From a virus (taxonomy: Duplodnaviria; Heunggongvirae; Uroviricota; Caudoviricetes): a stretch of 22,725 bases of DNA. The position numbers and the translations under genes were made by a program. This document shows positions 14,121 through 14,768 of this stretch, in pieces. The DNA lies in IMG/VR virus record IMGVR_UViG_2681813227_000023, positions 1 to 22,725 of that record; one strand, 5' to 3'. Within the stretch, counting starts at the first letter, position 1. Each line of letters opens with the position of its first letter. Under the pieces are notes generated by a model. That model did not search any database. It was not told the origin of the DNA and saw nothing but the letters and a program-made list of their open reading frames with translations.

Positions 14121-14442
14121 AACGCTGAGAGCACTTAGCCTGTTAAGGCGCCACACTTTGTCGCGGCTCCATAAATGCTCTCATCGTTGTACCCTCGTCT
14201 CTTCCGAGGCGTCACACCGAATCGCCGGGATGGTGAATCCCCGTGCGCGGAATAAAACCGCTCGACTTGCACATTCCGGCTACCTGGTTCGTTTGCCCGA
14301 GCAAGGGAGGGTGCCCCTTAAACGTATCCAGACCGCTATCGGCGCATGTGCCATACGCCGTACTGCTCAAAATAAAAGCTCACTCCACCTGTTCAATTTA
14401 ACGACAAGCCAGTCAGGTTAGTAACCGGAATGAACTCTTTGG

Positions 14443-14457
14443 TTACCTGAAAGGTAA
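14443..14457. promoter_or_regulatory. Operator-like palindrome TTACCtgaaaGGTAA upstream of the morphogenesis operon
   Basis: Sixth copy of the TTACC-N5-GGTAA motif, about 90 bp upstream of the first late ORF. Confidence 0.45.
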
Positions 14458-14547
14458 TAATTTGTGTGTTAAATGTCAACTATCTACGATAAATAAATCA
14501 TATGTGGTTAAATTGGTAATAATTTAATTGCGTACGGAGTCATTGAT

Positions 14548-14754
14548 ATGTGCATGGGTAGCTCACCGTCAGTGCCTGCAACACCAGAAGTTCAGGCAGC
14601 ACCACAGGAGCAGGATGCCGCCGTTGTTGATGCCCGCAACGAAGAAACTCGTCGCCGTCGCGCTGCTGCTGGTCGTAGTTCTACGCTGCTTACCGGTTCT
14701 CAGGGCGACACATCAACCGCTAATACCAGCGGTAAAACGCTACTTGGTCAGTAA
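14548..14754 (+). CDS. Hypothetical small Arg-rich protein (68 aa) preceding the portal gene
   Basis: ATG with GGAG SD; the leader GGAGTCATTGA is repeated identically before the portal ATG. Arg-rich stretch EETRRRRAAAGR. The overlapping 14528 frame looks less coding-like. Confidence 0.45.
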   Translation: MCMGSSPSVPATPEVQAAPQEQDAAVVDARNEETRRRRAAAGRSSTLLTGSQGDTSTANTSGKTLLGQ

Positions 14755-14768
14755 CCGGAGTCATTGAA

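Follow-up and report, generated by a model that had tools for sequence, protein, structure and literature searches.

A widespread covarying RNA encoded opposite to the portal operon of a phiV10-type phage, beside a predicted operator and a conserved small open reading frame

Phages and prophages carry large ornate RNAs, ROOL and GOLLD (about 580–800 nucleotides, nt), that typically lie next to transfer RNA (tRNA) genes and have no assigned function; they are present in Rfam and occur mostly in Firmicutes and other non-enteric bacteria. Phage HK022 has put, a cis-encoded antiterminator RNA of about 70 nt with two stem-loops and a short triplex (PMC9378689), and in phage T7 residues 2–15 of gp6.7 wrap the portal barrel and the protein is ejected together with the core proteins (PMC11784390). 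These systems were compared with one intergenic region of the IMG/VR virus record IMGVR_UViG_2681813227_000023, of which the whole 22,725 nt stretch analysed (positions 1 to 22,725) is referred to here as the window. The region is the non-coding spacer of 427 bases (14121–14547) between a tRNA-Arg(UCU) gene and a 68 amino acid (aa) open reading frame (ORF) ahead of the portal gene, and it encodes a conserved structured RNA. Going by its sequence, the window is a phiV10/epsilon15-type temperate podophage; positions 13380–14800 were 99.2 % identical to Escherichia phage phiV10 (genus Uetakevirus, epsilon15-like), and window position 11192 corresponds to phiV10 coordinate 1.

An earlier note on this DNA had described about 430 base pairs (bp) after the tRNA with no convincing ORF, a repeated-half site, a near-palindrome and an Arg-rich ORF with a duplicated leader, and had suggested a late promoter and a structured RNA. 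All of the sequence features that it listed were present, with position offsets of at most one base. The direction implied by ‘after’ has to be reversed: the tRNA-Arg(TCT) lies on the minus strand, so that the 430 bp are upstream of it in its own reading direction. The spacer did prove to lack a convincing ORF, as 14121–14547 gave no Pfam match and contained no frame that stayed open in relatives. A PHROG scan of the spacer frames returned a marginal match only (an 87-aa frame, E 0.0014), and conserved ORFs were rejected here, each relative's frames breaking at different places.

The structured RNA occupies 14390–14166 on the minus strand (about 190–225 nt; covariance-model match 168 bits, E 2e-50), and the window holds a single copy. 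Alignment of the spacer over ten genera revealed a conserved block at 14174–14370 that was present in prophages with or without the tRNA. A first covariation alignment comprised 40 representatives in minus-strand sense and yielded four nested helices, Ha (14360–14356/14344–14340), Hb (14336–14328/14287–14279, enclosing a variable hairpin), He (14241–14238/14230–14227) and Hf (14209–14205/14197–14193), and two pseudoknots, PK1 (14351–14346 with 14274–14269) and PK2 (14235–14232 with 14218–14215). Standard pairs made up 97.3 % of the cells, compared with 28–44 % when the partners were slid by one to three columns; 14 pairs had changed on both sides (99 cells), and none of 500 shuffles reached the observed values. 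The covariance model built from the nested helices gathered 98 copies, 89 of them distinct, for a second alignment in which 96.0 % of the cells were paired and 229 double-change cells fell in 14 of the 21 nested pairs, counts which lean towards the model structure because the alignment was fitted to that model. PK2 covaries, its loop pairing CACC/GGUG being replaced by AACC/GGUU in four sequences. PK1 (GCACAU with AUGUGC) is invariant, a predicted pairing that carries no covariation signal. The RNA also has long invariant single-stranded stretches, and its invariant motif GGUAGCCGGAAUGUGCAAG is the reverse complement of 14266–14284.

The strand was fixed by the G–U pairs, which accounted for 94 cells on the minus strand and for five if the opposite strand was read; the minus strand also had the lower folding energy (−119.8 versus −99.9 kcal/mol for the plus strand). 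The suggestion of a structured RNA ahead of the portal gene was thus half right. Covariance and RNA-fold analysis across homologous regions, the check that had been proposed for it, did find a conserved covarying structure, but on the opposite strand; being transcribed away from the portal gene, it is not a leader of the portal operon. A long hairpin, GAGAGCAUU...GUGCUCUC (14123–14182, minus strand), bridges the structured RNA and the tRNA 5′ end; it was found in both the minimum-free-energy and the centroid fold, and the same sequence follows the RNA in phage cdtI. The tRNA-Arg(UCU) itself (14044–14120, minus strand; called by ARAGORN, Rfam tRNA 73 bits) has the same orientation as the RNA and is missing from most relatives in other genera. 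Searches of Rfam 15 with 14166–14390 gave no match at E ≤ 10 except two chance matches to eukaryotic families, on the opposite strand at the 5′ edge of the RNA (E 4.7–6.3, far below the gathering scores), and the P1 and cdtI copies gave no match at E ≤ 1.

The RNA is widespread. A scan of viral contigs for its invariant 19-mer identified at least 120 loci in about 40 sequence clusters, and it was detected in 1064 of 5426 complete E. coli genomes (about 20 %). It occurs in phage P1, Shiga-toxin-type phages, SfV-type lambdoids and epsilon15-like phages. The phage and E. coli collections contain no annotation of the RNA itself, a few phage records placing a ‘hypothetical protein’ over it, and a literature text search for its sequence strings returned nothing relevant. 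P1 has the RNA in its C1-controlled ban operon, flanked by trnI (tRNA-Ile2) and ban. The lambdoids cdtI, mEp460 and Stx2a_WGPS2 share a fixed order in which the cI stop codon is followed by a terminator, a strong promoter (TTGACA-16-CATAAT), about 47 nt and then the RNA, after which come the long hairpin also seen in the window, a further hairpin with a T-run behind it and the genes of the early-left region. A search for an N-like gene in these three RNA-bearing lambdoids found none; orf39 was considered for this role and rejected, as it has no Arg-rich motif and no Pfam match. One further lambdoid (locus L121) has tandem RNA copies downstream of cI, at 3972–4178 and 4779–4987, about 800 nt apart.

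The tRNA neighbours differ in identity and side: tRNA-Ile2(CAU) stands directly 5′ of the RNA in P1 and several lambdoids, and tRNA-Arg(UCU) stands 3′ of it in phiV10-type phages. The common denominator of the contexts is an operon under direct control of the prophage repressor, in which the RNA is usually promoter-proximal. It often touches tRNAs and often precedes terminators, neither being universal by a crude scan. The RNA is a mobile module, found in P1 and the lambdoids beside ban or cI rather than with the gp3/portal pair. Prophages of Proteus, Morganella and Providencia have only about 185 bp between terL and gp3, which identifies the long spacer of the window as an insertion hot-spot and not an ancestral leader. 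Two phages have variants of the locus. Phage epsilon15 (L005, 2599–2751) has a truncated copy of the RNA (39.6 bits) and no tRNA, and its record annotates an RNase III site at 2720–2819 (plus strand) in place of the RNA. In the place of the phiV10 tRNA-Arg, phage cdtI (L225, 2722–2850) has another segment, about 125 nt long, with GUGGUAAUCC at its start and CCCCACCA at its end; ARAGORN calls no tRNA in it, and it may be a tRNA-like remnant.

To the right of the RNA, the TTACC-N5-GGTAA site reported in the earlier note was found as TTACC-TGAAA-GGTAA at 14443–14457, 105 nt upstream of the 68-aa ORF. The window contains seven exact copies of this palindrome (3712, 3775, 4487, 6818, 6880, 11278 and 14443) and two with one mismatch (4535 and 11296), giving nine matches at up to one mismatch against 0.34 expected. 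Three copies lie between the divergent repressor gene (3847–4431, minus strand) and a cro-like gene, and the rest mark where transcription units begin. The protein encoded by the repressor gene is homologous to SPC32H Rep, whose structure has been solved (PDB 5D50, E 4e-42), and the window thus shows what is expected of an SPC32H-type system, a palindrome over-represented at operon starts in a phage that encodes Rep. In SPC32H the motif is found at equivalent places and also upstream of the antirepressor gene ant, and the RefSeq record of epsilon15 already annotates equivalent sites as repressor-binding, one of them 105 nt before gp3. From this agreement the site at 14443–14457 is identified as an operator of an SPC32H-type Rep, real but not new, since its equivalent is annotated in epsilon15. 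With the same palindrome at the same places and a close Rep homologue, there is no essential difference from the SPC32H/epsilon15 system, the set in the window being predicted.

The operator stood at −105 in each of the 80 IMG/VR loci, and likewise in 11 of the 18 loci from GTDB species, out to Pseudomonas lundensis; every E. coli-type relative had it there. Operator pairs elsewhere in the window are spaced by 62–63 bp; at 14443 the partner, 62 bp away, is the half-site GGTAA (14515–14519). The operator set extends over the whole phage: each transcription unit has a copy at its start, and terS too is preceded by one. Such a distribution suggests direct repression by Rep of the late and packaging operons in addition to the early ones.

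A candidate leftward sigma-70 promoter (14451–14479, minus strand) overlaps the operator. Its −35 hexamer TTGACA (14479–14474) is separated by a 17-nt spacer from the −10 hexamer TACCTT (14456–14451), which sits inside the operator; the predicted start is near 14444 and the promoter points away from the portal gene. Of 86 distinct operator regions, 69 had the arrangement TTGACN-17-TACCTT, and their spacers took 25 different sequences; fixed hexamers at a fixed 17-nt spacing around varying spacer sequence form a pattern typical of a promoter. Of the late promoter that had been suggested for this region, promoter and operator signals are indeed there, but the sole signal with a canonical −35 points leftward.

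On the other side of the operator lies a conserved AT-rich block (14458–14535, plus strand), the segment 14441–14547 having a GC content of 29 %. The block comprises CTACGAT, TATGTGGTTAAATTGGTAATAATTTAAT, the half-site GGTAA and an inverted repeat (14508–14527), and the portion from CTACGAT to TATGTGGTTAAATTGGTAATAATTTAAT is near-invariant across genera from E. coli to Pseudomonas lundensis. The inverted repeat, TTAAATT-N6-AATTTAA, is perfect and centred on the GGTAAT operator half-site; it could be the binding site of a late activator. As a terminator stands behind terL and the inserted unit is read leftward, the gp3–portal operon needs a start of its own in this region, and we infer that the AT-rich block is the best candidate for the rightward head-operon promoter, which would be activator-dependent, or for an activator site. 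No second copy of the block, looked for as a late-promoter motif, was found in the window.

The Arg-rich ORF of the earlier note, 68 codons from ATG and containing ETRRRRAAAGR, was found at 14548–14754 (plus strand; phiV10p06), with the Shine–Dalgarno sequence GGAG at 14536–14539. It matched phrog_831 over its full length (residues 1–68 of 68, E 1.5e-35) and is a homologue of epsilon15 gp3, a family that is annotated as hypothetical protein in all records. Conservation of this ORF was a point on which the earlier note had staked its reading, and here it was upheld: close homologues formed 146 clusters at 90 % identity and were 88–99 % identical across Enterobacterales, and a family profile search at E ≤ 0.001 returned 1515 representative clusters. 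An N-terminal Met-Cys was present in 115 of the top 143 sequences, and Met1 and Cys2 were the sole invariant columns among 106 diverse members. The protein consists of Met-Cys, a Pro-rich linker, a helix (residues 24–40) with RRRR and a conserved STxLTG...KTLLGQ tail; AlphaFold2 predicted one helix (residues 24–40) between extended segments, with a predicted template modelling score of 0.37. In distant phages with an epsilon15/BPP-1-type head module the gene order is terL (or a 162-aa gene), gp3 and portal, with gaps of 0–16 nt, and in many phages lacking the intergenic RNA the gp3-family ORF comes straight after terL. A family that is fixed upstream of T7-type portals, often with no such RNA, argues for a role in the virion or its assembly and not for N-like RNA binding. 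The RNA-binding role to which the resemblance pointed out in the earlier note would lead therefore found no support, the family being tied to the portal and the structured RNA lying on the other strand.

The 68-aa protein most likely works like T7 gp6.7, as an extended, largely unstructured virion protein whose N-terminus, from Cys2 onward, would wrap the portal barrel and which would leave the capsid with the ejection proteins. The two are alike in being small (68 versus 88 aa), in an invariant Met-Cys followed by a Pro-containing segment (x-S-P-K/S-x-x-P), in a gene position upstream of a T7-type portal (PF12236) and in a mostly extended predicted structure; the gp6.7 family also begins with an invariant Met-Cys-Phe-Ser-Pro-Lys. 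Profile alignment with hhalign covered 10 N-terminal columns only (probability 30 %, P 5.6e-4), and seven of 5000 shuffles scored as well as the N-terminal likeness. T7-like_gp67 (PF17570) was the Pfam family matched by most members, weakly and in six of 106 (best E 0.032), and a gp6.7 homologue, 9vvp, was the only phage protein among the PDB profile matches (weak, N-terminal, E 3.5); PDB searches with the ORF and the family profile otherwise gave chance matches to ribosomal proteins only. T7 gp6.7 differs in having no counterpart to the central RRRR helix or to the STxLTG...KTLLGQ tail of gp3. As the alignment is restricted to the N-terminus, a gp6.7-like way of working is proposed and family membership is not claimed. 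A likeness of RRRRAAAGRSS to the C-terminus of T7 gp7.3 was dropped, as 95 of 5000 shuffles scored as well.

Several points speak against a gp6.7-like role. The protein encoded in the window gave no Pfam match at E ≤ 1, leaving it short of the PF17570 threshold, and the similarity between gp3 and gp6.7 is confined to some 10–25 N-terminal residues. To our knowledge, the published virion proteomes of epsilon15 do not list gp3. One gp3-family member (L232, 2938–3177) sits in a small integrase/AlpA element with no portal gene; this element may be a phage satellite. The same member has a hydrophobic, lipobox-like N-terminal extension (MKTFILNLLLIPMGC...). If the link between gp3 and gp6.7 holds, podophages with T7-type portals would share, as a general feature, a protein that clamps the portal barrel and has an N-terminal cysteine.

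As a whole, the spacer could be explained as a divergent control region under Rep, into which a leftward transcription unit has been inserted, followed by a gene for a gp6.7-like small protein, an account to which belief and doubt attach in equal measure. In the lysogen, Rep bound to the operator would silence the leftward unit and may also silence a rightward, probably activator-dependent, promoter in the AT-rich block; upon induction or infection, the RNA and the tRNA would be made as immediate-early products. The most likely mechanism, slightly favoured and put forward tentatively, would have the RNA act in cis on the early transcription complex or transcript, as a put-like element with which RNA polymerase would read through the terminators further downstream. 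Cis action is favoured because the RNA is promoter-proximal, with terminators downstream and lambdoid hosts that lack N, and because its invariant single-stranded stretches suggest a conserved host partner. The likeness to putL and putR of HK022 is one of place: in epsilon15-like and SfV-like phages the RNA lies just downstream of a repressor-controlled early promoter and upstream of terminators, in lambdoids without N. Size and fold differ, the RNA here having about 190–225 nt, four helices and two pseudoknots and no sequence similarity to put, so that any likeness would be one of function, not of family membership. The put RNA suppresses termination by binding the zinc-binding domain of the RNA polymerase β′ subunit. 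Several points weigh against the account and its cis mechanism. The RNA is three times as long as put and folded differently, and each phage has a single copy where HK022 has two, putL and putR. In P1 it is far from the promoter, a distance of 2.3 kb separating it from Pban, and no terminator is predicted directly behind it; by the crude scan, about one third of the representatives had no terminator-like site within 900 nt and about half had no nearby promoter. The leftward −10 TACCTT in the window agrees with the consensus at three of six positions only, a weakness because of which a generic promoter scan of the region, in which the candidate stayed below threshold, found nothing; nor was a canonical rightward (plus-strand) sigma-70 promoter present in the region. 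A second model also fits, a stable RNA, self-contained or acting in trans, that would be cut from the early transcript by tRNA-processing enzymes. Its target would be a conserved component of the host, or it would assemble into an RNA-only particle like ROOL and GOLLD; this model is nearly as likely. Same-strand tRNA genes abut the RNA on its 3′ side (tRNA-Arg) or 5′ side (tRNA-Ile2), terminators follow it as they would a free-standing gene, one lambdoid has tandem copies, the RNA moves like a module among unrelated phage types, and its long invariant single-stranded stretches would suit such a role too. The lambdoids without N are harder to reconcile with it, as in these the RNA lies between PL and the early-left genes, which a terminated free-standing gene would block. 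ROOL and GOLLD share the phage setting and the adjacency to tRNAs, but the RNA described here, at about 200 nt, is several-fold smaller and has no match in Rfam 15.

Two further explanations fare much worse. The conserved block could act as DNA and not as RNA, for instance as a boundary for recombination or a site bound by a protein, with the small ORF as a conserved but dispensable filler. It does lie at a mosaic junction, a hot-spot for cargo-gene insertion between terL and the portal module, and conserved ends are common on mobile modules; duplex DNA sites are, however, not expected to show compensatory changes in 14 of the 21 nested pairs, covariation in a pseudoknot or a 94 : 5 bias in G–U cells, and a filler gene would hardly have a protein sequence conserved across 1515 representative clusters (50 % identity) and containing invariant residues. 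We consider this explanation very improbable. The other, which extends the suggestions of the earlier note, would be a plus-strand leader RNA of the portal operon, bound by the Arg-rich motif of the 68-aa protein in the way that N binds boxB. The motif ETRRRRAAAGR does resemble the arginine-rich motifs of lambda and P22 N and lies on a predicted helix, and the purine-rich loop of helix Hf, GAAGAGA (minus strand), recalls the GAAGA loop of nutL boxB. The likeness to N ends with the helical TRRRR segment: in the 68-aa protein the motif is central (residues 33–43) and not N-terminal, the gene belongs to the head module and not to an early operon, and the RNA sense contains no boxA and no nut site. 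The RNA lies on the strand opposite to the ORF, and the plus strand has the poorer fold. In distant members of the family the gene comes after terL without any leader, and the P1 and lambdoid copies have no gp3-like gene or portal in their annotated flanks. By the evidence of strand and synteny, the leader model is already largely refuted.

The operator and the small ORF are ordinary, the one being annotated in epsilon15 and the other belonging to a known family. The item worth following up is the unannotated, widespread and strongly covarying RNA on the opposite strand; as to how it acts, we infer a preference only. It might represent an undescribed class of phage regulatory RNA, either a protein-independent processive antiterminator acting on RNA polymerase or a compact ornate RNA directed at a conserved host machine just as lytic growth begins, a possibility that we rate as rather unlikely. 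A pseudoknotted RNA nonetheless sits unannotated in model phages and in phages of medical relevance: in the ban operon of P1, in Stx2 prophages and in O157 typing phages. Were it put-like, it would be a second, structurally distinct case of RNA-only antitermination and would account for early gene expression and the read-through of early-left terminators in lambdoids without N. Were it a stable RNA, it would add an enterobacterial, genetically tractable member to the unexplained tRNA-adjacent phage RNAs.

The remaining features of the spacer are of local extent. The leader GGAGTCATTGA is duplicated exactly before the portal ATG, as the earlier note had seen (14536–14546 and 14757–14767). The exact repeat is really of 12 nt, CGGAGTCATTGA (14535–14546 and 14756–14767, plus strand), its second copy forming the ribosome-binding region of the portal gene (ATG at 14769), and repeats of at least 12 nt arose in three of 1000 shuffles of 14441–14800. 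Only the E. coli phiV10 lineage has the duplication; elsewhere the two starts have just GGAG in common with it. As a lineage-specific feature it was rejected as a regulatory element, and from its position and distribution the duplicated 12-mer is read as two ribosome-binding sites with no conserved extra function. The near-palindrome GGTTAGTAACC is present, but at 14416–14426 and not 14417–14427; it was rejected as a conserved site, its segment varying between genera. Overlapping it is a 13-nt segment (14420–14432, minus strand; CAUUCCGGUUACU in RNA sense) that is complementary to the invariant motif of the structured RNA and pairs with it in the minimum-free-energy fold. None of 200 shuffles reached 13 nt, and the segment is absent from most other lineages. 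In the modelled leftward transcript it could sequester the invariant motif, at most as a local feature.

Around the spacer, the terS (11232–11906) and terL (11903–13378) genes are followed by a bidirectional terminator (13429–13448), and the portal gene (14769–16448, plus strand) encodes a T7-type portal (PF12236, E 1.6e-187). Between terminator and tRNA lies a cargo gene of the Sf6 gp66/N4 gp49 family (13840–13469, minus strand; PF13876, E 2.4e-35). A terminator scan placed two intrinsic terminators on the minus strand (14000–13965 and 13880–13865), downstream of the tRNA and ahead of the cargo gene; the segment containing them (13865–14000) had a fold z-score of −2.66 and is kept in relatives. 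Close to the second terminator, 13857–13911 (minus strand) shares 13 identical bases with the RyhB core (CAUUGCUUCCAGU), probably by chance: it scored 18 bits (E 3) with Rfam, the core is not kept in epsilon15, which has CCUUGCU there, and the segment was rejected as RyhB-like. The annotated ORF phiV10p04 (13863–14114, plus strand, 83 aa, phrog_4647) overlaps the tRNA-Arg in antisense and also conserved non-coding DNA; it is probably not a gene, and its PHROG match only echoes the annotation. In two prophages, of Pseudescherichia vulneris (L087, 230–2656) and Citrobacter braakii (L092, 258–2687), some 960 bp of inserted DNA break the terL frame beyond about residue 84; the insert could be an intron, an intein or a homing-endonuclease element.

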